From Spirogloea muscicola (Eukaryota): a stretch of 51,956 nt of DNA. The notes below the pieces were generated by a model. That model saw only the letters and a program-made list of their open reading frames with translations, made no database searches and was not told the origin of the DNA. How positions within the stretch are numbered: position 1 is the first letter of the stretch; the number at the start of each line of letters is the position of its first letter. The stretch covers positions 925,780 to 977,735 of the forward strand of contig WELB01000008.1 of NCBI GenBank assembly GCA_009602725.1. The letters are read 5' to 3'. Below are positions 27,970 through 51,200 of this stretch, in pieces. Both the position numbers and the translations under genes were made by a program.

Positions 27970-28158
27970 GAAGAGAATGAGCTCGCCCATAGAAGCTCAT
28001 TCTCATTCTCATTCATGCGCACCGCGCGCCTTCTCTCTCTCATTCGCGCATAGAAGAAAGAGGCATCGTGTATGAGAGAGGGGCTGGCAGAAGCCAGCCA
28101 AAACAGAATGGACAAAACCCAAAGAGCTACAAGAGAATCACTCAGTAACCTCTGCTAA
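27970..28158 (-). mobile_element. Inverted 3'-end fragment of a CRE-like non-LTR element (ORF end plus 3' UTR)
   Basis: The minus strand reads CTTAGCAGAGGTTACTGA (LSRGY*). It continues into a UTR containing ATACACGATGCCTCT, shared with 33473-33488, and TTGTCCATTCTGTTTTGGCTGGCTTCT, which resembles 34749-34775. Confidence 0.7.
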
Positions 28159-28162
28159 GCAG

Positions 28163-28660
28163 CCCTTCGAGACGCCCTGGACGGGCTTGACGCGCGACGC
28201 CTCCTACCGCGCCGTTTGTGGAAGTAAGTAATGTGATGCCCGTCACCACGGATTCCCAGGGTCGCCATCACCGTCGCACCCTGGACACTGTGGGTGTACA
28301 ACCTGGCTGAGGCCCACGAGCCTTGGTGGATGTGGTGGTGACCAGGCATACAAGAGTTCCGCTTCCCACACACATTGCTGGCCACGCAGTGGGAGGTGCT
28401 GACAGAGAGAGCTCCGACACTACTCTGACTACCCCCCGCAGCGACCACCTTCTCCCGGCCGCAATCGACACTTTCGGCTGCTTGGGTCCTCGCTTCCATA
28501 CCTTAATTGAGAACATAGCGAGTCTGGAATTTGCACGACGCTGAGGATATGCTTCCAGCCCAGATGGGTATGCCGGCAGCCTATCTGTCATTTTTGCGAC
28601 GTCGAGTGTCAGCTTGTCTGCAGGGCTCCTGCGTTGCATCAGAAAGCTGGTCAAGCCTTC
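28163..28660 (+). mobile_element. Degenerate 5'-truncated CRE-like RLE non-LTR fragment (older subfamily), cut off by the next copy
   Basis: Frameshifted translation LRDAL..RDASYRA..VMPVTTDSQGRHHRRTLD.VG..PRALVDVVVT..LLPAAIDTFGCLGPRFHTLIENIA..RRRVSACLQ aligns by eye to ORF 33686-34582. Confidence 0.85.
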
Positions 28661-28664
28661 GAGC

Positions 28665-29690
28665 GCCGCAGAAGCTTGAGGAGGCTGCCAGAGATTCAAA
28701 ACAATCCAAGGAGCCAAGCAAGACTTACTTCTCTAGCCACACCTGGTGCCACCGACTGGATCACCTCACTCGCCTTCGCCAACGCCTTCAGCATCACCTC
28801 CGAGGCCTTTCGGACGTCGCTTCAACTCTTCCTCGGCCTCCCACCTAACGGCCTGATTGGGGTGCGCCAGAGTGAGTGCGGCTTCTGTGCAGAGGGTGCT
28901 GAGCTCGCCACTCACATACTGAGATGCCCCACTGGACCAGAAGTGGTGGGCATCCACAATCTCCTCCGCGGTGCCCTGGCGGGCTTGCGCGACGCCGGCT
29001 ACCGTGCTGTCGTGGAAGTCAACGATATCATGCCTATCACCACGGACGCCTAGGGACGTCATCATTGCCGCACACTTGACATTGTGGGCGTGCAACCTGG
29101 TGGAGGACCACGGGCCCTGGTCGACGTTGTTGTTACGGAGGCATATAAAGGTCCAGCATCGACAAACATCGCTGGCCACGCAGTGGGCGGCGCAGAACAA
29201 AGAAAGCTGCAGCACTACTCCAATTACCCCTAATGCGACCAGCTGCTGCCAGCGGCAGTCGACATCTTTGGCTGTCTGGGTCCTCGTTTCCACACTCTCC
29301 TTCAAAACATTGCCCATCTAGGCTACACACGACGTGCAGATGTGTTTCCGGCTGAGATGGGCTTGCCAGCTGCAATATGTGTAGTTCTTGCGACGACGAG
29401 TTACGGCCTGTTTACAGCGAGCTCAGGCTAATGCCTTGCACCAGAAAGCTGGGCGAGCTTTAGTTGGTGGCAGAAGGGCTTCGTATCTGACATCTAGTAT
29501 TCAGGCATCAATTAGCGACCTATGTTTTGATGGTTACTGAGCGGGTCAATCTGCTGTACGTTATGTAGGTCTTCGAATGTGCTTGCCTTTGTCCTTGGAC
29601 ATTTGGCCTTCGTATGTTTCAATATACGAAACTTTCCTTCAAGAGAGAAGGCGCGCGGTGCGCATGAAATTGAAAGGGAGGCCAATTCTA
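28665..29690 (+). mobile_element. 5'-truncated CRE-like non-LTR copy (CCHC + RLE + 3' UTR), pseudogenised
   Basis: Highly similar to 33698-34679. Codons that are CAG/CAA in that copy are TAG (29051) and TAA (29231) here, and there are small deletions. Confidence 0.9.
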
Positions 29691-29699
29691 GCCTTACGA

Positions 29700-29940
29700 A
29701 CGTCCTGTTACCTGGGTAATGAGCTGGCTAAGGGGGACACTAATAACCCCGGGTGAGCACATGCATATCTGAAAAGCTATATTGAGAAACCAAACCACCA
29801 CCACGGAAGCCATTAGCCTGGGCTAATGCACGACTGGCACGCTGGTGTATCGCGAGTGCCTGGGAGCGCTGTAGTCTCAATGATAGCCGCATTCTATAAC
29901 ATGCAGCGATGGCTTGCGGGACGCTAGAATGCCCTAAGCT
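29700..29940 (-). mobile_element. 3'-end fragment of a divergent CRE-like subfamily, tail-to-tail with the previous copy
   Basis: The minus frame reads AIAACYRMRLSLRLQRSQALAIHQRASRALAQ..SFSDMHVLTRGY* (stop 29740-42). This is homologous to RRRVSACLQRAQASALHQKAGRAL..SDLYVLTRGY*. Confidence 0.8.
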
Positions 29941-30269: not shown

Positions 30270-31220
30270 GCTCTGACTCTAAGTTTGATCAGATGGCGAG
30301 ACAGATTGCAGATTTAACCAATCAGCTCGCTCTAGCGAAACAGAAGGGCAAAGCTAAAGTAGTTTCTACTGCCATGCCCGAAGCAGACGATTATCCAGAG
30401 GACGAGGAATATAATCCTCTATAATCCTCAGGGAATTCACGTTGACGGGGATGAGGACATGGAGTCTTATGAAGGGTATGCCCATGCGGCCGACCTTATC
30501 CCGCGTGTTGCAGATGCACAGGGTTGCTCATCTCGCAATCCCTTGAAGAGGGGGGAGGTCGAATTAAGCCAGCAAACACCTCGCGGAATGGCCCGGTACC
30601 CAGCTAGGTTTAGAATCAAAGATATTGGTGATATTGTGGTACCTGCTCGTAGCGCTACTCCGAAGGTTGCTACTGATGCAGACATGCCTGTGAAGTCTTC
30701 AGTGTCTACCAATGTACTGCTTACCAAAATGCTTGAGGCACCTGTTTTGAGTATGCGAGACATTGGTGTGCCTATGGACACTCTGCATGATCTGATTCGG
30801 ACAAGGCCAGAAGTCGATAATGCTGTTGTGTCACAGATGGCACAGCATTCATCTGCCATGTCGGCAACTTCTTCTCTGATTTTATCGGATTCCGATTCTA
30901 CCAAACCTTGCAGATGCCCAACAGAGCGTACCAAGGCCATCGCGGCGGTGGCAATGCTCGACAATACAGCGAATATTGTGAAGTTGGCCAGTGGGACCCA
31001 TACTGCAACTCCTTCACTGGTACTACTCGATACAGGTGCACAGCCTATCCTAATCAGTCAGCAGTTCGCGACCAAACTCCGCCTGAGGAAGGATGATGTG
31101 CAGACTAGTACCATGAAGATCAGGACAGCGACTGGAGGTGCAGACTCTATTGTTGGTGTCACCAGGAAACCACTGCGTATTATGCTGCATAATGATGACC
31201 CAGATGCATGCACTTCGTTT
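30270..31220 (+). mobile_element. LTR-retrotransposon gag-protease fragment (Ty3/Gypsy-like retropepsin), forward arm
   Basis: LVLLDTGAQPILISQQFATKLRL..KIRTATGG is the retropepsin D-T-G motif and flap. A coiled-coil/acidic segment lies upstream (FDQMARQIADLTNQL). Confidence 0.8.
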
Positions 31221-32082
31221 CTGTCAGACCAGAACAATCAAAATCAGTCTCAGAGTAGTTCCTCCTAATGAGAGATGTGTCAGTGACTATCCCGCTGCAA
31301 GCTGAGATACCACTATACTTCTTTCCCTTCAAAAGAGGTAACGTAGCCTTCCGAGTTCCTGATTGACGCCAACCTGGTCTATACCATGCCATTTCTGCAT
31401 AATAATCGATTCCGAATCCTAACGGAATCAGAATCTCAGTTCCCAGCAAAACATCGTATGTAGTGGCCCTTGTAATCAGACACCCTGCAGTAAACGAAGT
31501 GCATGCATCTGGGTCATTACTACGCAGCATAATACGCAGTGGTTTCCTGGTGACACCAACAATAGAGTCTGCACCTCCAGTCGCTGTCCTGATCTTCATG
31601 GTACTAGTCTGCACATCATCCTTCCTCAGGCGGAGTTTGGTCGCGAACTGCTGACTGATTAGGATAGGCTGTGCACCTGTATCGAGTAGTACCAGTGAAG
31701 GAGTTGCAGTATGGGTCCCACTGGCCAACTTCACAATATTCGCTGTATTGTCGAGCATTGCCACCGCCGCGATGGCCTTGGTACGCTCTGTTGGGCATCT
31801 GCAAGGTTTGGTAGAATCGGAATCCGATAAAATCAGAGAAGAAGTTGCCGACATGGCAGATGAATGCTGTGCCATCTGTGACACAACAGCATTATCGACT
31901 TCTGGCCTTGTCCAAATCAGATCATGCAGAGTGTCCATAGGCACACCAATGTCTCGCATACTCAAAACAGGTGCCTCAAGCATTTTGGTAAGCAGTACAT
32001 CGGTAGACACTGAAGACTTCACAGGCATGTCTGCATCAGTAGCAACCTTCGGAGTAGCGCTACGAGCAGGTACCATAATATC
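31221..32082 (-). mobile_element. Inverted copy of the same protease region, extending 271 bp further 3'
   Basis: 31492-32082 is the reverse complement of 30630-31220 with about 6 substitutions. It continues into TYDVLLG (retropepsin C-terminal motif) ..GIDYYAEMAWYRPGW. Confidence 0.85.
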
Positions 32083-32102
32083 CACAAGTCTTTCTCGGCT
32101 CT

Positions 32103-33154
32103 GTAAAATGTGTGCAAGCAACGAGATATTCAACCATGTACTCAATGCAGGTCCTGAGGATAATTGTTGAGTACGAAGAGAGCGGATCCGTTTGGCAGTA
32201 ACTTGGTTTCCGGAACAGATAGATAGTGCCTTGAGCCAGAACGGGGGCCTAGCCCAGCCTATCTACTTCGTAACGGGGGCCAAGCCCAGTCCTATCTCTA
32301 CTTCGAACAGGCTCCAAGCCTTGATGTAGAAGAACCGTGTATCCAAGCGAAGATGCAGTATGCACTCTTGCAAGGAATGGAAAGTGTTGAATCTATGCAA
32401 CACCTCAGAGCAACGCAAGGTTATGCTTGTCAGCTACCCTCAACAACACGCAAGGTCACAATGCTTGTGACTCACCACGTGTGTCCAGTCTTACGCGCCG
32501 GTGGCGGAAGCTCCTCGGAGGTAAGGCTCTCTAGCGGCTATTACGCGGACGCCTATGCCTCTCCCTCTGGCTTTTGCCGCTGTCGCCGCCGCTGCTGCCG
32601 CCGCTGCCGCCACGGTCGTCGCTGCTGCTGCCATTGCCGTCGCCATCGTCGCTGTAACAAGCACGAGCGTAGCACGCGCGTTCAGTGTCACGCCAAGAGG
32701 GCGTGGCATAGGCGTCCGCGTAATAGCCGCTAGAGAGCCTTGCCTCCGAGGAGCTTCCGCCACCGGCGCGTAAGACTGGACACACGTGGTGAGTCACAAG
32801 CATTGTGACCTTGCGTGTTGTTGAGGGTAGCTGACAAGCATAACCTTGCGTTGCACTGAGGTGTTGCATAGATTCAACACTTTCCATTCCTTGCAAGAGT
32901 GCATCTTCGCTTGGATACACGGTTCTTCTACATCAAGGCTTGGAGCCTGTTCGAAGTAGAGATAGGACTGGGCTTGGACCCCGTTACGAAGTGGATAGGC
33001 TGGGCTAGGCCCCCGTTCTGGCTCAAGGCACTATCTATCTGTTCCGGAAACCAAGTTACTACCAAACGGATCCGCTCTCTTCGTACTCAACAATTATCCT
33101 CAGGACCTGCATTGAGTACATGGTTGAATATCTCGTTGCTTGCACACATTTTAC
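32103..33154. repeat. Long inverted repeat: arms 32103-32559 and 32705-33154, 145-bp GC-rich spacer
   Basis: The arms are direct reverse complements with about 5 substitutions and one 7-bp duplication (ATGCAGTATGCAC versus ATGCAC). Confidence 0.95.
32165..32445. mobile_element. LTR-like segment within the inverted repeat (mirror copy 32819-33092)
   Basis: Bounded by TGTTGAG...CTCAACA, with an internal tandem duplication of about 33 bp (GGGGCC.AGCCCAG.CCTATCT..ACTTCG.AAC). No target-site duplication or primer-binding site was found. Confidence 0.35.
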
Positions 33155-33471
33155 CTGAACTGAAAGACATCGCCAGCTGTGCTCTGACTCTCAGATAAAT
33201 GCGACTGCCATACCTTATGAGCTGTTCTATATGTTATTTTCTCAACATACATCATCGAAAGATCGCCAAGTCTACTTCTACACTTGACCCTGCTGATCAC
33301 CTACGGAATGCCTGTCGACTACTTCTGTGCTAATTCAAGTGATCGACGTCGTATGGCAGCCGACATCATATGGCACGACAACTCCTCCCTTCTCAACGTG
33401 CTGCAGGCGACTCCTTGCTGGTGGCGATACGTTTTACGATGACGGAGGGGCCTGAAGATGCTGTGTCTTGT

Positions 33472-33651
33472 GAAGAGGCATCGTGTATTAGAAAGAAATG
33501 TAGGCCAAATGGCCAGGTACAAAGGCAAGCACATCTAAAAATCTACATAACCTACAGCAGATTGACCCGCTCAATAACCACGGGTCAAAACATAAAGGTC
33601 ACTACTCGATGCATGAATACTAGATGCCAGGAACGGAGCCCTTCTGCCACC
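33472..33651 (-). mobile_element. Inverted duplicate of the 3' end of the adjacent CRE-like copy
   Basis: Reverse complement of 34502-34679, identical except for a 2-bp indel near the outer end. Confidence 0.95.
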
Positions 33652-34679
33652 ATCCAGAGGGGCACAATCCAGACTGGTTACGGCAGTGGAAGACGAATGC
33701 CGCAGAAGGTTGAGGAGGCTGCCAGAGATTCAGAACAATCCGAGGAGCTTGGCAAGACTCACTTCTCTGGCCACACCTGGTGCCACTGACTGGATCACCT
33801 CTCCCCCCGTCGCCAACGCCTTCAGCATCAGCTCCGAGGCCTTTCGGACATCGCTTCAACTCTTCCTCGGCCTCCCACCTAATTGCCTGATTGGGGTGCG
33901 CCAGTGCGAGTGCGGCTTCCGTGCAGAGGGTGCTGTGCTCGCCACTCACATGCTGAGATGCCCCACTGGACCAGAAGTGGTGGGCATTCACAACCTCCTT
34001 CGCGATGCCCTGGCGGGCTTGATGCGCGACGCCGGCTACCGTGCGGTCGTGGAAGTCAACAATATCATGCCTATCACCACGGACGCCCAGGGACGTCATC
34101 ATCGCCGCACACTTGACATTGTGGGCGTGCAACCTGGTGGAGGACCACGGGCCCTGGTCGACGTTGTTGTTACGGAGGCATATAAAGGCCCAGCATCAAC
34201 ACACATTGCTGGGCACGCAGTGGGCGGAGCAGAGCAAAGAAAACTGCGGCATTACTCCGATTACCCCCAATGCGATCAACTCCTGCCAGCTGCAATCGAC
34301 ATCTTTGGCTGTCTGGGTCCTCGCTTCCACACTCTGCTTCAAAACATTGCCAATCTAGGCTACACTCGACGCGCAGATGTGTTTCCGGCTGAGATGGGCT
34401 TGCCAGCTGCATATCTGTCGCTCTTGCGACGTCGAGTTTCGGCCTGTTTGCAGCGTGCTCAGGCTAGTGCCTTGCACCAGAAAGCTGGGCGAGCTCTAGT
34501 AGGTGGCAGAAGGGCTCCGTTCCTGGCATCTAGTATTCATGCATCGAGTAGTGACCTTTATGTTTTGACCCGTGGTTATTGAGCGGGTCAATCTGCTGTA
34601 GGTTATGTAGATTTTTAGATGTGCTTGCCTTTGTACCTGGCCATTTGGCCTACATTTCTTTCTAATACACGATCTCTTC
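33652..34679 (+). mobile_element. 5'-truncated CRE-clade-like non-LTR retrotransposon with an open C-terminal frame (zinc knuckle + restriction-like endonuclease) and 3' UTR
   Basis: Motifs: ARLTSLATPGATDWITSPP, FRTSLQLFLGLP, CECG-x10-HMLRC (CCHC), IHNLLRDAL, RTLDIV..LVDVVV (PD..D-like), AEQRKLRHY, LPAAIDIFGCLG, RVSACLQRAQA. This order matches the C-terminus of CRE/R2-type elements. No RT domain is present. Confidence 0.88.
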
Positions 34680-34879
34680 TCCTTCTGCCACCTACTAGAG
34701 CCTAGCTTGTGGCTATAAGCCCCTCCGTCATTTGGCCCCTTCGAACCTTTGTCAATTCTTTTCGGGCTGGCTTCTCACAGACCTTTGCCCCTTCGGGAGA
34801 GCCAATTCTCTTTTACCCCCTGGCCACGAACATCCACGGGTGTAGTACGGGAAAAAGGCAAGCGCGGCCACATTAACTG

Positions 34880-35240
34880 GTGGTTGGGAGGGGGCCGGTG
34901 GTCCTCACTTTCGCTGCTGGCCTCTCCAGCTGACCAGCCGCGCCGCGAACGGAGTGTAGTACTTACTGGGGGCTCGGTGCCTTCCGGTCTTTGTGTCCTG
35001 CTACCGCATGCGGCTATCTATGTCCCTACAGCGGTCCCAAGCGCTTGCTTTGCACCGCCGAGCCAGTCGCGCCCTTTGCAGCAGCCTCTGGCTTGCGCAG
35101 CGGGGTTGCTCTTCCTCCCCTCAGCTCATCTGACTTCCCACTGCTGACACGGGGGTACTAAGAGCGCCCTGTCTGCCTAGGCTGTGGCTCCGACAGGAAC
35201 ACTTTCTGCATGCACCTGGCTGGCTTTTACAGCCGCTCTT
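34880..35240 (+). mobile_element. 3' fragment of another CRE-like subfamily
   Basis: Reads GPHF...SCYRMRLSMSLQRSQALALHRRASRAL, then a frameshift, then AAASGLRSG..LSSSDFPLLTRGY* (stop about 35159-61). Confidence 0.8.
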
Positions 35241-35269
35241 TTTTATATCAGCAGCCGCATGCTCTGCTC

Positions 35270-35480
35270 TTTGGATGCTCTGGCGGACTTGATGCGCGAC
35301 GCCAGCTACCGCGCCACTGTAGAAGTCAACAAACGACCCAGAGGCGTTGTCCCGCATCCCTGGGTCCCGCGTCCTTGCTCTTCAGTGAAAGTGGCGCTAT
35401 CACAGCTGTGTGCCAGCGCAAATTCCTGCTCCGCCAGTAAACGACCCGCCCTACAGTGGCTGACCCGGGGTTGCTTAGCC
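35270..35480 (+). mobile_element. Heavily deleted CRE-like relic
   Basis: DALADLMRDASYRATVEVN at about 35274-35330, a TGGGTCCCGCGT (LGPR-like) piece, and CTGACCCGGGGT (LTRG) at about 35460. Confidence 0.6.
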
Positions 35481-36287
35481 TCGGCAGGGGCTGACATCTC
35501 GCTTTGTGATGTTTACTGCTCCACACGCTGTCCGTCCTCATTCAATGGACTGGCCTCTACTACGCACCATCAGTGCTTCCCTGCCCAATCTGGCCAGCTG
35601 GGTAGTCCTCAGAAAGTGCTCGCCGACAGAGAAGAGGAGCTGGGCTGGCGCTTCTGCAGCCGAATGCCCCCTTCGGTAGCCCCCTTCTTGTAAGCGCGAG
35701 CCTTGACTTTCCATTGTGTTCCTGGATTGGCCACAATTGGTGCTACCACTATTCCCACCCCTCTCTTGCACACCCGTGGCCCCCATGCTCGCTGCTCCAC
35801 TGAGTTGACCCACACAGACGGAGCTGAGGCCCAGCTATGTCAAAACAGTCAGATGAGGGAAGCAAGATTCAGTGTCCAGAAGCAAGATCCACACACTAGA
35901 TCTTGCTTCTGACGAGGGCCGCTCAAGTCAGGTGATCATATTACCTAGATATAAGAATGGTGAATGTGAATAGCTTCCGCATGCCCTGCTGTCTTGCCGC
36001 GTCGTCCTTTTCTATTCCTGCAAAGCTTGGCTTATCACTGCTAATACTCTTCCAAGAACATTGTGGCAAGTGTAGACGCAAGGAGGACCAAGCAATTAGC
36101 TTAAACCCGACATTCACACACGCTGCGCCCTTCACACCCAACCAAATTCCTCCCAAACCCCTTTCTTCTCCACTCCTCAAAGGCGACCCATCACCGTAGC
36201 ATTGCGTTTACTACCTCAGATGCTGACTTGTGGCATTGAAGCCAATCGTAAGTGGTGCCAACCAATAAAAGAATCTGGGGAGGAAGA

Positions 36288-38575: not shown

Positions 38576-41500
38576 AGAACCGCATGCTTCAGATGCTGCT
38601 GTTGCTGCTGGTGGTCTTGCTGGTGTGTTGTTTCTTGCAGCTGCTGCAGTACTGGCTCATGCATCTGCTCGAGCTCTTGCTGCTGCTGCACGGCCGGTGA
38701 GGGCGTCGATGGCACCTGGGGCTGCTGCACAGGCAGCTGTTGTAAGCAGAGCTGCTTCTGCAATGTCTGCGACAGGTGAGGCTGTGCCAATGGTTGCAGC
38801 TGCACTGCCTCCTGCTTCTCGACTTGCAGAGGCTCCCAAGCCATCAGCGGGGGCGGACCCTCAACAGCCATGGCACCAGACAAGCCCTGAGCATTGCGCC
38901 TGCCAGGTGTCAGCTCCGCGTCATTTGGCAGCCTCCCCCCCAAAGTCCCATCCAAGTGCCCTGCCGCCAAGGGAGCTTGCTCCTCCTGATTGAGCTCCAG
39001 CTTGCCAACTGGCTGGCCGGACCTCTGAACAAACTGGCCATGCCCGTCAACCTCCCACACGCCAGACATGCGCAAGGGAAGCTCACGTTCCCTTGGCAAG
39101 CCGGGCTGACCAAGCGGGTGCCTGCCATGGTGCCCATGGAGCTGAGTGCTGCCAGGTAGAACATCTTGCTGGTGCAGGGCCTGCAGGAAGTGGGGCAGTG
39201 CACGTGAGCATATCTGCTGCAGTTGGCATAAGACCATCAAGGTGAAGACAAACAAGGGGCCACATTAGCTGGGTGCAGGCAGGGCCTCACAGTTTGGGGC
39301 AGGAAGTTCATAGCAAAAGCACTTCATGGCAGGAGCACTACAAAGAAGCAGTAAAGCAGTGGCTGCTTCATAAGTGGCCTCCATCTACATTGGCATCATA
39401 GCATCATAGCAAGGGAGGACAAGAACTTACAAGAGGCAGCAGTAGGTGCAGCGGCAGCTCTGCCAGGCTGGGGTTCTCCTTGAGCAAGCGCTCCACAGCC
39501 AGGAGCTGCTGGTGATGCTGATACTGCCGCAGGAGCTGCTCCGCACCATGTGCAGCAGCTGCTCCGGGCGGCACCAGGGAGCCTCCGAGTGTGGCGGATG
39601 CAGCTGCCGCAGTCTGCGCCTGCATCTGGGATAGCACCAGGTGCTGCTGCTGTTGAGCTAATTGGTGGTGGCTCTGGTGCAATTGCTCCGGCTGCCGCTG
39701 CCGCTGCTGTTGCAACAAGTCCAGCGCGAGGGCTGCAGGCACCTGCTGGGGGCCTACCATGGACTGCTCAAGTGGAAAAGCAAGCCGCTGGTGCTGTGGC
39801 TGCTGCTGCAATGATGGCGGCGGGTGCTGTTGTTCAAGATGGTGCAGCATTCTATCAGGGACCATGCCCGCCGGAAGCACCCGCGCGACTCTGTCAGAAG
39901 CTGCCACCTCCGCGGAAGCAAGCGGTGAAGGCATTGTTGATACGAGGCCATTGGGTTGCCATGCCGACACTGCTGGCAGCTGCTCATCCTTGACGTTTTG
40001 CTGCTCCTGTAGCACCCGTGGCGGTGGCAATGGGAAGACATCCTCCTCAAAGAACCAGGGCTTGCCCAACAGGGGTCCTACAGAGGGAAGCAGGGCCGGC
40101 GCCTCGTCACGGTGGTCGCCCTCCACCTGTGGAAAAGCAGACATGCGCCGCCGCTGCGAGAAGGTGCGCTCCAGCGACTCGTCTGTGCCCAGGCTGGGAA
40201 TTGCCACTTCAATTGACACCGAGGCATCGCCATTGAACAGCACATCTGCAATAGAGGCAGTAAGTGAGACATGCAGAGAAGATAATCAATGCTCTGCACT
40301 AAGCTCAGAAATCAAGTATGCCAGGTATGCCACGTCGCAAGGCAGAAGGAGATCCACAACATTGTCAACTTCGTTGAAGCTACCAGTGAAGCAGACAAGG
40401 AGCCACCTGGCCTATGATTGTTGGCGCCCGTGCCAGAGCTTGCCAGCTCAGGGCTGCGGCTGGATGCTGGGCGCTCAGCTTGCTCATCCAGCTCCTCTGT
40501 GGCACGGGCACTTAACGCCTCTACATCATGCAGGGCTGCTGTTGGAATATTGTTGACACCAATAGGAGGACCTTCTGTTATTGCCACCTTGGCCTGCTCC
40601 ACCAGGCTGAGAGCAGTCTCCTCCTTTTCCTCCTCACTTGCAAGCATACCATTAGCAGCTGAAGCAGCCCGTGTGGCAACTGCAAAACCGGGCGGCACGG
40701 CGGGCTTGGGATTGAGCTGAGGCACGACAGTGCCGAGGGGCAGGAACGGCGTGCCAGGGGAGGCATCGGCAGGTTGTACAAGCAGCTCCAAGCCAAAAAA
40801 GCCGGCCTCCAACCAGCCAGCAATGTCGCTGCCGGCGAACGGGCCCTGCACCTCTCCTTGCGGGTCCTTATACAGCAGCTGCAAGTCCTCGAGCAGCGAC
40901 GCCAAATTCTTAGTGGCCACAACACCTGCAGCGATGACGCCGGGTGCGTCGGTGGCCACCATCTCTTTGGCGCCTTTGCCGCCCTTCTCGTTACGCTGCA
41001 ATGACCAAGTATCCGAGGGCTCAACAGGCCGCGGTCCATGTACATTGCTGCTTGCGCCCGTGGCAGCGGCAGCATTGCTAAGCTCCGTCTTAGCTTCTGC
41101 ATCTGGCCCATTGTCGTTGATTGTCGCCTTGTGCAGCTGAACTGCAACATCACTTGGTGCTGCAAGCAAGGACGATTGCAATTGACAGTAAGAGGGCGAT
41201 CTGAAGCACCCGTTGGCACTTTCAAGCGGCAGCAGAACCCAAGGATCTTCTCCTACTTGTTGGGGCACTGCTCGGCGATTGTACTTCGGTACAAAATTGT
41301 TGCAGGGTTTATACCTGGTGCATGTGCAGCTGGGGCAGCCCACCCAAAGCCACGCCCTGCTGGATCGTCTGGTGGAATGCTCGAGAGAGCAGCCTCATGC
41401 GCGGCGGCTCGGCTGTGTACAGGCTCGCCGTTGAACATGGCCTCTCGCAACGCCTGCTTGACCACAGGGCGGCACACAAGTCAGGCTGATCGTGCGCATC

Positions 41501-45288: not shown

Positions 45289-48200
45289 TCACCGCTGGTC
45301 AAAGGGTGGGAAGAGATTGGGATTGTGGTAGCCGTTGGCAACACCGTTGTACCTAGGATTCGTGAACTCCAGCATCTGGGATGGTGAGGCGGGGCCACTG
45401 GCGGGGGCCCCTGACACTGGCTGCCTGTATGACTGCCAGAGGGCAGCTTGCACAGGCAGCAGCGACGCTGAGCCTCCCGGCAGTGAGCTAGGCTTGCGGG
45501 GCAGAGGGGAGCCTGGCCGTGCCACTGAGGGCTCGGTTACAGGCGTCCCCGGCGCCAACAGGCCTAGTTCCCTGCCGCTACCAAGGACAACATGTGCAGC
45601 GCTGTCAAGTGCAGGTGGCCGCAGCGCCTGCTCGTTCCAGGGCCCAACAAGCACAGCACGGTCGGGGAAAGGCTCCCACATCAGACTGCTGGGCTGGCCG
45701 AGGCTTGTCTTCGGACAAAAGACTGGGTCAGATGCAGGAGTGAGGGTCGGTGATGTCTGCCCTTTGTGCAAACCCTGCATGCACAATGCACATAAGCATG
45801 TAGATCAGCCGAAGGTCAGAGAGCCTCAACGTAATCAATCCCGACGCAGGGCGTCGGAGGCTGGCTCACCTGGCACTCAGACATGAAGCCATATTGAGTA
45901 AAGGAAGGCGCTGCTGCTGGAGTGCGCGGGTAGCCTATGCAAGCCCTCTCCAGAGGCAGGGACTTGACAGGGTTCCTCCGCTGCAGGGACGGCACCAAGA
46001 GCAGCCACAAAGTATCAGTGCAGATTGAGAGGAGAGACACAGCGGAGCTGCACACAGGAGAGCGTTTCCTCGAAGAAAGGTGCTAAACGTGAGCTCACTG
46101 CGAAGGTGTTGTCCAACGGCAGGCTGGCCAGCCGAGCTCCGTCAAAGGGCGAGCCCCACAGGCTGTACAGATTGGTAGCCTCCTCATTGCATCGCTGAGC
46201 GCCGTCAAACTGGCTCAAGTCACCTGCAATTTCCCTCGCGCCCTCGAGCTCCCCTGCTTGCACCTCCCCTGATTCGGCCTGCTGCTTTAGCTCCTCAACT
46301 CTATGTCGCTGCACAAGGTCTTGGTAGCTGGCTTCCTGGGCAGCGTCCTTGGGAGATGCCACTATCAGTGGAGTGCCTGCATCGAGGTGGAGGTTGCTCG
46401 AGGCAGCCTCTCTTGAAGACAGCCGACCAGGGCCAGGAGCTACAGTCGGCAGTCGTGCAGCTGGCTGCATTGGGCCTCTGACTGCAGGGAGGAGCGGGAG
46501 AGGAGCCATGCGTGGGCCTGCAGCCGGACTCCCACCCATAGGTGTTGTGGGAGCACTGTCGCAGCTGCGGAGTCTCCAACCGTGGTTGTCCATGGGGGAA
46601 TCGCTGCTGGACTCCTCAACTTTGTGACCAGAGAGCCGCTTCCTGGGCGTCGAGGGCAAGACCACAGCGGCTGCACCTGAGGGCGCCCATGTCGGCCTCT
46701 GCCCTTGACTTTCCAGCCTGGTGGCAGACTGAATCGTCTTGTCTAGCTGGGTCGACCTTGCCACCGAGAGCTCCGGAGGCTGCAGCAATTTGACCTTCCC
46801 GGCCACCTGCTGGCTGGATGCAGGCATCGGGCTGGCCATGTCTGCTGAGGCTGGCGACGGAGGGGAGGCCCCTTCCACTCCCACAGCCTTCAGGGGTTGC
46901 CGCCGTTTCTTGCGGCTAGCTCCGCTCCCCGTGGTAGCTGCAACTGTTGGCATCACTGCAGTACCTGGCTGCGGCTGCCTGCCTGGACTCCTTGCTCCTA
47001 GCGAGAAGTCCTGCTCCCTAGTCAGCTCCAGTGTAAGGCTGCTACTTTTGCCACTGCTGCTGCTGCTACTGGTGCTTCCTGCAGAGGTGACCCCAGATGG
47101 AGAGGCAGCTCTGCCTTGAGCAGCTGTTGGAGTTTGCCCACGCTCAAATGCTTCATCGCGAGCAAGCTGAGCGCTGGCCGCCACTTGAGGTGCACTCACG
47201 CTGACGCCGTCATTTGGTGCCTGACCTGCTTGGCCCTTGCTGGTCTTCCGCAGAGAAGGGGACGTTGAAGTGGATGAGATGCAGGAGGGTGACAGGTTGG
47301 GAGCTGATGGGGAGGAGGGGGGTGGAGGAGTGGCCAAGGAGTCGTATGTGGCAGAGGAGGATGAAGAGGAGGGAGAGCAAGACGGCAAGGGAAGGTGGGA
47401 GTAAGCAGCTGGCACATTCAGTGCAGGTGAAACTCCCTGCAGGCAAGAAGGCTTGCGTGGGCGGCCCAGCACAGGCCGCAGCACAACAAGCAACACGAGT
47501 AGCAGGGTGCCCGCTGCTGCTACCTGCAGCGCCCCCTGTGGCCTTAGGCGCTGCGCAATTAGCAGCGGCTGTAATTCTTGTGGCAGCTGCCCCAACAGCA
47601 GAAACTTGGAGACGCCAGCCGTAGACTCTAGGAAAAGGTGCCGCTCCACTAGCGCCTCTGAGAAGTCCGGCTTGAAGCGCACCTCAATGGCCACCATCTG
47701 TTCCAGGAACATTGCACCAACATTCTAGTCAGCTGCTTGCACCGTCATTTTGGAAAAGAAGGTGGTGCAAAATCAGGATACATCCCCAAAAACTTGGCTG
47801 TTGACCCTGTACTCTAAAACCTTAAAGCAAAAACGTCTGCGCAATGTCACCAACCTCTTGAGCGCCGAGAGTAAAGCCGTCGCAGGGCTTGATGGACAGC
47901 CCGCTTCGAGCGCATGCAAAGCCCTTGTCAAGGCCGATGCGGTGCACAACCAGCGGCATGGTGCCCACATTCTCAACAATGAATGATGAACTTGTCTCCA
48001 CAGCCTTGCAGTCTGCTGCCGCTAGCGGCAGGGCCTGGTCATCAACAACAGCTCCTTCGATCTTGAGAGGCAGCAGGAGGGCGCTGACATTTCGCCGCCG
48101 GGACGTCTGGTACGTGCGGAGGCCCTGCACCATCGGGTGTGCCCACGCTCCCTCGCCACGGAGCTGCAATTGCTCCTGCAGCGTGAGGTTGTTGTGTACC

Positions 48201-51200
48201 ACTAGAGACGCGGTGGCAGAGCAGAGTCGCCGTGGCAGGAATCCAACGGGCCCCATTTGCAGGCGGCTGCGCGGTGGCAAAATGGCTCTGTTGACGCCAT
48301 GGGGCGACAGCACAAAGGCTGGTGGCGTTGCCAGTGACGAGGACGGGCGCTTGGTGCCTCCCCGACGCTCCAGGTTCGTACAGCTCTGCCCGTTAGCCAG
48401 GAGCATGTCGTGCTCATCCTCCGCGCAGAAGCAACGTGCAAGTGCCGCACTTTCGCCACTGAGAGCGAGCCGTGCCTGCAGCGGCCAGTCGGAGGGGTTC
48501 TCCACCCAGACATCTTGCCACTCGGTGGTGTGCACGTGCACCTGCCCGTACTCCAAGCGGCCAGGCATACTCTCGTTGGCCAGCACATGAGGTCGCACCA
48601 GTGAAAATAAGACCGGCACAGCGCTCTGGCTGACCACGTCGGTCTGCAAGAAAACCTGCGCAACAACTTCCGTGCCATTTGACTGGAGCAGTTCCTGCCA
48701 TGCAGTGTCTCGCTGCTGCATGGCCGACTTGTCCCCGGCCAAGCATGGCCGACTGCCGTCCAATTGGGTACCTATGCGGGAAAGAACATTGAGTTCCATG
48801 TTGAGTGGACACTCACAGACAGGAACCATGAGCTCATGACTCTAGTGGTGAGACACAACGAAGATGACTCTCATTGGAAGCCAGCCAACATCTCCACCAT
48901 GAACCAAACTCGGGGAGATAAGATACGGGTACTGCTGCCAAGAGATAGCTTATGGGTTTGCTCACCTGACATGTTGGCACAAGCTGCCGCTCGCGGGGAG
49001 CCTGCAAGAACGTAGTCAGAGTGTCGCCCGAGGGAGAGATCCAGAGTGAGAGTTGCAATTTCGGTCTCCTTGCCCGGATCCAACTTTGTGGCAGTGAGCC
49101 CCACAAGTAAGCGGGGGTCTGACGACAACACTGCCTGCAGCAGGATGGGGCGTGGGAACGTGGAGAGCGCACACAGGCGGACCGTCTCCATGCGCCCCGG
49201 GAAGGATGGTTGGAAGTGCACAGGGCTCGGCGACAGGCTCAATACACCGTCTACTAGCTCAAAAGTGACGGCCACAATCAGCTGCTCGAAAAGCGTCCTC
49301 ACAGCGACGGCCCCCCTGGCTGCACCATCCTCTGCCTTTCCAGCTCGAACCTGTGTGTCAATTTGGGGCAAACAGAGCCCTTCAGTAGTTAGATAGGAGG
49401 CCAACAATCTCTTGAAATCCGCTAGCAAGGACATTAGTGCCCACTGTTGTATGCTTGCAGTGAGGTTACAGCCACAAGTCACAAATGTCATATGAGTGGT
49501 GCCACGTGGCATGTACCTCCAGGGCGAAGACAGCAGTGTGTCCCTCCTGCAGTTCACTGGGGGTCTGCCCGAAGACGGGCAGGTGCAGCGAGTGCTCCGG
49601 CAGCGCCGTCCCGTCCGGGCCTCGTACATCAATCACGTGCAATGACATGACTGGCATGCTATGGCTGACACTGAGGAGCGGGACTGCCCTTGGTGCAGGG
49701 TTACGCAGTGTGAAGGTGACAGTGCGGCTCTCCCCTGCGCCGACGCAGCCGAGGTCGAGCAACTGGGGTCCCCCCAGCTCCAGGTGGCCGCTGTGGACCT
49801 GCAGCTCCACCTCGAGCTTGCCAAGGTCAGTGAAGACTGACAATATTGCCGACATCGCCGCCACCGCGGGCAGCGCTGTCGGGTCATCAGGCCGGTATTG
49901 CACACGGACTGGCCGAGAGAGCGCCCCTGGCCCCACTTGCGAGCCTGCTGGAAAGCTGAGGAGCTGGAATGCAGGGGGCACGATGTGCGCCGATAGCAGA
50001 GCCAGCGGCAATTGGAAGCCGTTCCGCAGCCGGAATGACTGCGCTTTGGGCCGCGAGGACGGCATCTGTTGCGGCAGCCACTCTGCTGCTGCGCCACCAT
50101 CATCGTCTAGCAGCCGCTCCTGCTCAGCTCCAGCTGCCACAAATGGGGCCCTGGATGCAAAGAACACAGCCTGCTCTGGTGGCTGCACCGTCACCTCGCC
50201 GCGCAGGACACGACCTGTGCAGCGAACCACCACAAGGCTGCTACCAGATGTATCATTGGTGCGCACGAACAAGGTGCCATGCACAACCTCCACATCGCCC
50301 AGCGGTCTGAAGAGAACGTCTGCTACTGTAGCCTCCACATCGGGCTGCAGTACCCCACCACGCTCCATGGCCAGCACTTCCAAGCTGCTGTTGCTGCCAG
50401 CGTCCTGCACAGCAATCATCCATTCCATCTGCTGGTCAGTACACCCTCCTTGAGCTGCACCTATGCAGTAAGAATTGCTACTCAAGCAAAGCAGCAGTGC
50501 ACAGCACCGCTGCCAAGTCACCTGGAAGACCTCTTCAACAGCGATGGGCGTGCTGCCGACATTCAGCAACCTCAGCGGGAGGCGCTTGGAGGGGCTCCTG
50601 CCCAGGAGAGTACCAAAGTCGAGTACATCAGGCACCACTTTCACGTTCACCATACAAGCCTGCACAGACAGGGGGATTTTGAGGGGGTGGGGTGGGTGAG
50701 GTGGTTAAAATGGCTCATCGCCGCTTGCTTCCAGATCTCAACAACATGATGCAAGCACAAGCACCAGCAGAGGCGCCAGACAGCGTCGTGTGGGCAATTG
50801 GGTTCGCAGGCGTTAGAGCGGTGCTCCCAGGCAGCGTCGCATTGTGCAGATCAAAGGCAGGCAGTCAGGTGCAGCAGCATGCAGCACCTCAATGTCGATG
50901 GGGATGAGGAGGGAGTGCGTCCAATTGTGACAGTGGAGGTTGCGCCCGAGCTCAATGTGCAGCATGCTGTGGTAATGCCCTGGCGCTGGCGCGACAAATT
51001 CGACAACCAGCACCGCGCGCGTCTCGCCGGGGGCGATCTGCCAGAGGCCCAGCGGCCCCACAGCGTCGTTGTTGCTGGTGGCGGAGGCTACGTCTCCGGG
51101 TCGGAGCAGGTCAAGCTTGAAGTGGTCCTCAGGGAGGTGAGCCTCGAGCAGGTGGAGGCCCTTGGCATACGGGTTGTGGAGCACAAGGTGGTGCGAGAAT

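Follow-up and report, generated by a model that had tools for sequence, protein, structure and literature searches.

The joining of the 5' end is an open question for non-LTR elements with a restriction-like endonuclease (RLE), and it is relevant to R2-based gene insertion. Several described outcomes come close to the structure reported here. In tumours, L1 junctions with two poly(A) ends have been explained by two primings whose cDNAs were joined (bioRxiv 2024.08.27.596794; 2024.12.14.628481). These junctions share with the present locus a single insert that is bounded by two element 3' ends. However, they are somatic translocations between two distant target sites, involving an APE endonuclease and poly(A) tails, whereas the RLE copy described here has pyrimidine tails, an inverted flank copy and apparently only one locus. 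The snap-back 5' junctions of R2, described in PMC11371274 and PMC11331408, also concern an RLE element and also contain antisense element sequence or inverted target DNA. They were obtained as self-copies at low frequency in an engineered system, whereas the outer junctions differ from each other here and a second cluster is heterologous.

Penelope-like elements are described in PMC8557442 as forming partial tandems and as bearing, at their 5' end, a 5'-truncated copy in inverted orientation, together with a short end extension. The same paper states that these arrangements have not been observed where non-LTR elements insert by TPRT. An inverted 5'-truncated copy and partial tandems are found here across the RLE locus, the second cluster, contig joints and gene models. 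Penelope-like elements use a GIY-YIG endonuclease and have a tail of 30-40 bp, whereas the RLE copy has a C-terminal RLE motif, and the stretches that derive from the flank measure 13 nt here and 27 nt in the second cluster. Membership in this group was rejected because the RLE motif stands in place of GIY-YIG, and the ORF of the copy has no Pfam match. L1 twin priming is similar in that both cut sides prime on the element RNA and the inversion lies at the 5' side. It differs by an internal second primer and short overlaps, with duplications in 17% of cases at a median of 22 bp. Classical twin priming was discarded for the present copy since the inverted arm duplicates the terminal 172-180 nt and not an upstream, non-overlapping part of the RNA.

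Among the papers listed by searches of openly accessible literature, none concerned natural RLE elements with inverted 3' ends. As two-tailed L1 junctions, R2 snap-back and inverted 3' ends of Penelope-like elements have been described, the structure of the RLE copy varies known outcomes.

Anatomy of the insertion

The window, i.e. the entire stretch of 51,956 nt of Spirogloea muscicola DNA that was analysed (52 kb, with three N gaps), contains a 5'-truncated RLE copy with an element 3' end at both termini. On the plus strand, what remains of an RLE non-LTR ORF (33653..34582), open over 309 codons and with a CCHC knuckle and a restriction-like endonuclease motif, is followed by the 3' UTR and a pyrimidine tail (34583..34685), the final 5 nt of which are common to a 21-nt patch. 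The left arm (33472..33651, minus strand) holds the element 3' end in antisense, including the ORF end, the 3' UTR and the pyrimidine tail. Both the truncation and the inverted own 3' end at the 5' side had been recognized in the first-pass annotation and are confirmed. The arm had been described there as an exact 180-bp duplicate, but it is the exact reverse complement of 34502-34673 only over the 172 bp of 33480-33651. If the arms are extended into the tail, 33472-33651 and 34502-34679 align only with a 2-nt indel. The two extra tail bases lie on the left arm and are also present in a third 3' end at 28058. As read from the assembly, the copy looks like a real complex insertion.

The inner junction (33652..33659, plus strand) consists of 4 nt that fit neither side well, followed by AGAG. 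Among 202 stored proteins, all eight that reach this junction have D as the residue preceding RGAQ, compared with S in the window, and the sense body therefore begins within 33652-33656. The AGAG at 33656-33659 pairs in register with 34494-34497, which is not significant alone (p 0.15). Since the 3' 246 nt show no remarkable RNA folding (z -0.61), they give no structural reason for a stop near 34493.

At the left outer junction, the beginning of the right flank is present as an inverted 13-nt copy (33439..33451, minus strand, matching 34719-34731), which precedes a 20-nt filler (33452..33471). This filler is weakly similar to the element's own terminal bases, with 13 matches in 18 columns (shuffle p 0.02), and might represent an aborted start; a search for an exact local source of more than 10 nt found none for it. 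At the right outer junction, a 21-nt inverted copy of 34493-34513 (34681..34701, minus strand), for which a further extension was not significant, is followed by a 17-nt filler without a source found (34702..34718; p 0.31 against the element). The right flank (34719..34785, plus strand) belongs to a separate very high-copy repeat that resembles the 3' UTR of a sister RLE family, and it shares 81% identity over 36 nt with 28081-28116.

Both exact inverted patches had been noticed before, although with different details. The template of the 21-nt patch had been placed at 34492-34512, one base away from the true one, and the bases at 34719-34731 had been taken as copied from the left flank, whereas the direction is the opposite and the copy lies on the left. 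This direction follows from contigs, of which 51, 41, 35 and 42 start to fit at 34719 in runs X1-X4, respectively. They mark this position as the native start of the separate high-copy repeat and thus the 13-mer at 33439 as the copy. Inverted matches of at least 13 nt were reached in only 2 of 20,000 random pairs of 60-nt stretches from the window.

A direct TSD is absent, as had been stated earlier: the longest direct match between 100 nt on the left and 120 nt on the right measures 7 nt and lies away from the junctions. The absence of poly(A) at the RLE copy also holds. It was rejected as a sign of anything unusual, since it looks normal for the family: all four 3' ends read in the window are pyrimidine-rich, and two contig joints show similar tails.

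Element identity and abundance

The catalytic motif of the 309-codon ORF comprises C85, C87, H99, C103, H113-N114, E134, D155, D170 and K197, with H113 and D155 invariant across 18 sequences. Compared to the motif in PMC12857005, there are three departures, namely C-X11-H, IHN for RHN and TLD for R/KPD. An RVT_1 match at E<=0.01 was obtained for 11 of 14 long relatives, ten of them above the cut-off, and the models P0005 and P0008 from the same family match weakly (E 0.2 and 0.1). Based on the CCHC knuckle, the restriction-like motif and the RT in long relatives, the copy is assigned to the RLE non-LTR elements.

The early-branching RLE elements CRE, SLACS, MoTeR and FoTeR likewise have a C-terminal CCHC and restriction-like motif, and the relatives of the RLE copy resemble them in having one ORF of about 900-1250 aa with an RT. 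Unlike these elements, the copy shows the three motif departures, and it is very high in copy number, nested and not evidently site-specific. CRE1 and SLACS are characterized by a site-specific target, a TSD and a poly(A) tail, whereas the RLE copy has no TSD and its tails are pyrimidine-rich. None of the labels of 20 long relatives names a CRE element; they read 'hypothetical', 'unnamed' or gene-model only.

All 23 proteins returned by two ORF searches (3 and 20) are Spirogloea muscicola gene models with SM ids. A PDB search with P0008 gave no match, and a metagenome scan with P0006 found nothing. The metagenome scan with A2 retrieved two distant full-length relatives, L001 and L002, which are mutually 73% identical at the DNA level and consist of single frames of 1069-1086 codons. 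Their 3' ends carry TTATTG-type repeats instead of poly(A). Inverted ends were seen in neither of the two, which are too distant for this to weigh.

The family was further followed in contigs from four runs, X1-X4, of one sample that may be the source and that contains 0.55-0.61 of the words in 30300-35800. Since contigs drop variants and the filter removes records, absent or differing contigs weigh neither for nor against any reading. The contigs show that the family is very abundant, with 2,587 of 10,152 fitted pieces at >=99% identity in run X1. Region 34969-35000 has no contig cover, and some places in 33233-33303 differ in all fitted contigs. Among the best 32 of about 29,000 pieces, none bridges any of the three junctions. 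No RNA run containing this sequence was found among the runs listed.

Among the best 15 of 46 contig joints, together with 12 of 69 in a companion table, four are head-to-tail and two are head-to-head. An antisense 3' piece is joined to sense sequence in two joints among the best 15 of 46, each of them present in three of the four runs. Both head-to-head joints are weak, with 22-23 letters on the short side and unspecified letters in between. One further joint, present in each of the four runs, connects the left flank at 33380 with the right flank at 34745 across unspecified letters. It may represent a related (homeologous or empty) site without the insertion.

Second cluster and gene models

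A second cluster at 28012-29668, 5 kb from the RLE copy, has the same anatomy. It starts with an exact 27-nt inverted copy (28012..28038, plus strand) of the beginning of its right flank (29642-29668). The antisense 3' end of a sister RLE family, ending in LLSRGY-stop, follows at 28058..28165 (minus strand). The plus-strand part (28164..29641) is made up of a decayed, 75%-identical subfamily body up to 28659, followed by a copy of 90% identity that includes the 3' end. The two outward ends belong to different families, so that the cluster is not a self-copy. In both clusters, the copied stretch begins exactly where the right flank does; for the RLE copy, this boundary (34719) is fixed independently by contigs. 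Left of the second cluster, the filler at 27975-28057 is a patchwork of short, locally repeated and inverted motifs and matches the element over 10-11 nt near 34486-34496. Further sister-RLE fragments are located at 29642-29940 (minus strand), 34966-35270 (plus strand) and 35274-35333 (plus strand), and members of at least four families, in either orientation, are intermingled in the RLE nests.

In the gene models P0013 and P0177, from two scaffolds, an antisense 3' end of the sister family is fused to a sense body, which in P0013 is 99% identical to that of the RLE copy. Both models share one junction and may therefore reflect one event, and a splice, given fusions known at the protein level, could also account for them. 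The 3' end of the RLE copy's own family was found in antisense in none of the 40 family-like proteins screened, and a protein search with one frame of the antisense arm had no match. Antisense matches in P0012, P0064 and P0163 were discarded as weak and not located at a 3' end. Head-to-tail RLE 3' pieces make up the gene models P0028, P0017 and P0027, with nine matched stretches at a period of 83 residues in P0028. Many gene models of Spirogloea muscicola are fusions with RLE elements.

A proposed origin from two primings at one break

The structure is tentatively explained by a single break at which reverse transcription started twice, independently, the products being joined head-to-head with templated filler, at a probability of roughly 0.45. 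Read from the outside in, each side presents the same 13 nt, its own filler and a cDNA that starts at the element tail. The outer ends differ by the 2-nt tail indel and by unrelated fillers of 20 and 39 nt, which argues for two starts because self-copying would give identical ends. Moreover, the left arm has its inner end (34502; in register to 34494) within the template of the 21-nt patch (34493-34513), so that one cDNA end explains both. The heterologous second cluster with its 27-nt inverted flank copy favours this reading, the antisense-sense fusions in P0013 and P0177 speak for it, and the two head-to-head contig joints lend it weak support.

We infer the following order for every step. 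The left break end would first gain an inverted copy of the right flank's first 13 nt and a filler, then copy about 190 nt of the RNA and stop near 34493. The right end would copy 21 nt from the end of this first cDNA, release, pair by 5 nt with the pyrimidine tail of the RNA and copy about 1,030 nt. Joining of the two cDNA ends would follow, perhaps through the 4-nt in-register match. For the 13 nt on the left, either templated synthesis across the two ends or another copy of the same nicked end (a released primer or the sister chromatid) could be the source.

A priming from both cleaved strands with head-to-head cDNAs had already been proposed in the first-pass annotation. This core is favoured by the differing tails and fillers, the coincidence of patch and arm and the second cluster, but the direction of the 13-bp copy was wrong, and the labels 'CRE-type' and 'polymerase-theta-like' given there are putative. 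The proposal also overlooked R2 snap-back, the two-poly(A) L1 junctions and the upstream duplications, which leave room for fold-back or misassembly. Several observations count against two primings. Exact arms with a flank copy beyond them are also predicted by snap-back, and the in-register match of 4 nt lacks significance. All three inverted repeats of the window could be products of a single process, either at the DNA level or during assembly. In addition, head-to-tail joints exceed head-to-head ones among the best rows, the family's own antisense 3' end is missing from the gene models screened, and the decayed second cluster could reflect several events.

It appears unlikely that the family routinely makes Penelope-like double-ended insertions, in which both ends would prime, even across families, and an inverted target copy of 13-27 bases would replace the TSD. 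If this were true, two-ended priming would have left its natural signature in an RLE element, and RLE second-strand joining could be approached through it. In a young, abundant double-ended family, junction counts would separate snap-back, two-ended priming and end repair, and such a family would blur the structural line between Penelope-like and non-LTR elements. If double-ended copies are rare, the locus would be an ordinary aberrant insertion in a repeat nest.

Alternative explanations

The strongest alternative, although an unlikely one, is a cDNA snap-back. Here, the cDNA would have reached about 33656 and folded back near 34497, so that its own start was copied together with 13 nt of the target before it was joined to the left flank. 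The right junction would later have been re-cut and repaired, gaining the 21-nt patch. The identity of the arms at 172 of 172 positions, a left arm that extends to the very 3' end and the inverted flank copy beyond it are all consistent with this, and for R2, a class of junctions formed by snap-back onto cDNA or onto target DNA close by has been described (PMC11371274, PMC11331408). The 21-nt patch also has a 5-nt in-cis priming match. However, when the locus is compared with the faithful copy expected from R2-type snap-back, the 172 bp and the 13 bp are exact, but the tail and filler between them differ, and a second event is required to account for this. Snap-back could not produce the heterologous ends seen in P0013 and in the second cluster either, and the stem at the fold point is not significant.

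Rather improbable is the origin from two separate insertions of the same young subfamily that came to lie head-to-head in a nest of related elements. Nests of four to five fragments in each of the two clusters would fit this, as would the tandem pieces in P0017, P0027 and P0028, the head-to-tail joints and the frequent near-identical copies. Nevertheless, separate insertions leave the inverted 13-nt copy that ties the outer junctions together and the patch overlapping the arm end unexplained, and both arms share three minority alleles of the contigs (33516, 33540 and 33574).

Directly upstream of the RLE copy, back to back and both in unrelated LTR-derived DNA, lie the only other long inverted repeats of the window. 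The first is an inverted duplication of LTR-element gag/protease DNA (30630..32082) with 591-bp arms and six mismatches, all of them transitions. The second (32103..33154) has arms of about 460 bp with seven mismatches and a 7-nt indel. Their arms are about 1% diverged, and 0 mismatches in 172 bp are compatible with 1% (P 0.17), so that the age of these neighbours cannot be distinguished from that of the RLE copy. Break ends remodelled in the same episode, older rearrangements and misassembly are all possible origins for them. Slightly less probable than separate insertions is an assembly or amplification artefact, in which gap filling or inverted chimeras would have produced the RLE structure and both neighbours. 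In its favour, N gaps occur in the scaffold, the three long inverted repeats of the 52-kb window all fall within 4.1 kb, and one spacer (271 nt) equals the peak distance of amplification chimeras (PMC9984789). Structures of this kind are also said to trouble short-read assemblies (PMC8557442). In contrast, neighbour arms that are about 1% apart, in one case with six of six transitions, are unlike fresh chimeras, and the differing tails, fillers and 13-, 21- and 27-nt patches would resemble repair junctions rather than graph collapse.

Least probable is a DNA fold-back, in which a resected break end of an existing copy self-annealed and was copied back in the same episode as the upstream duplications: imperfect in-register stems at the neighbours' inner junctions (p ~0.055 each) and the inverted duplications that end remodelling yields beside L1 insertions (bioRxiv 2024.12.14.628481; 3 to 4 such cases, 0.3-0.4%, in PMC10191854) would agree with it, but the faithful copy of the right junction that it predicts is absent, and reverse transcription is indicated by an arm that stops at the element tail and has a filler of its own.

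Within 30630-33438 on the minus strand, one open frame of 360 codons (32262-31180) runs across both upstream duplications. Host genes in the window encode a GH31 glycosidase (13513-16617), a GYF domain (40312-41394) and TMEM131-like Ig domains (47822-48841), all on the minus strand.
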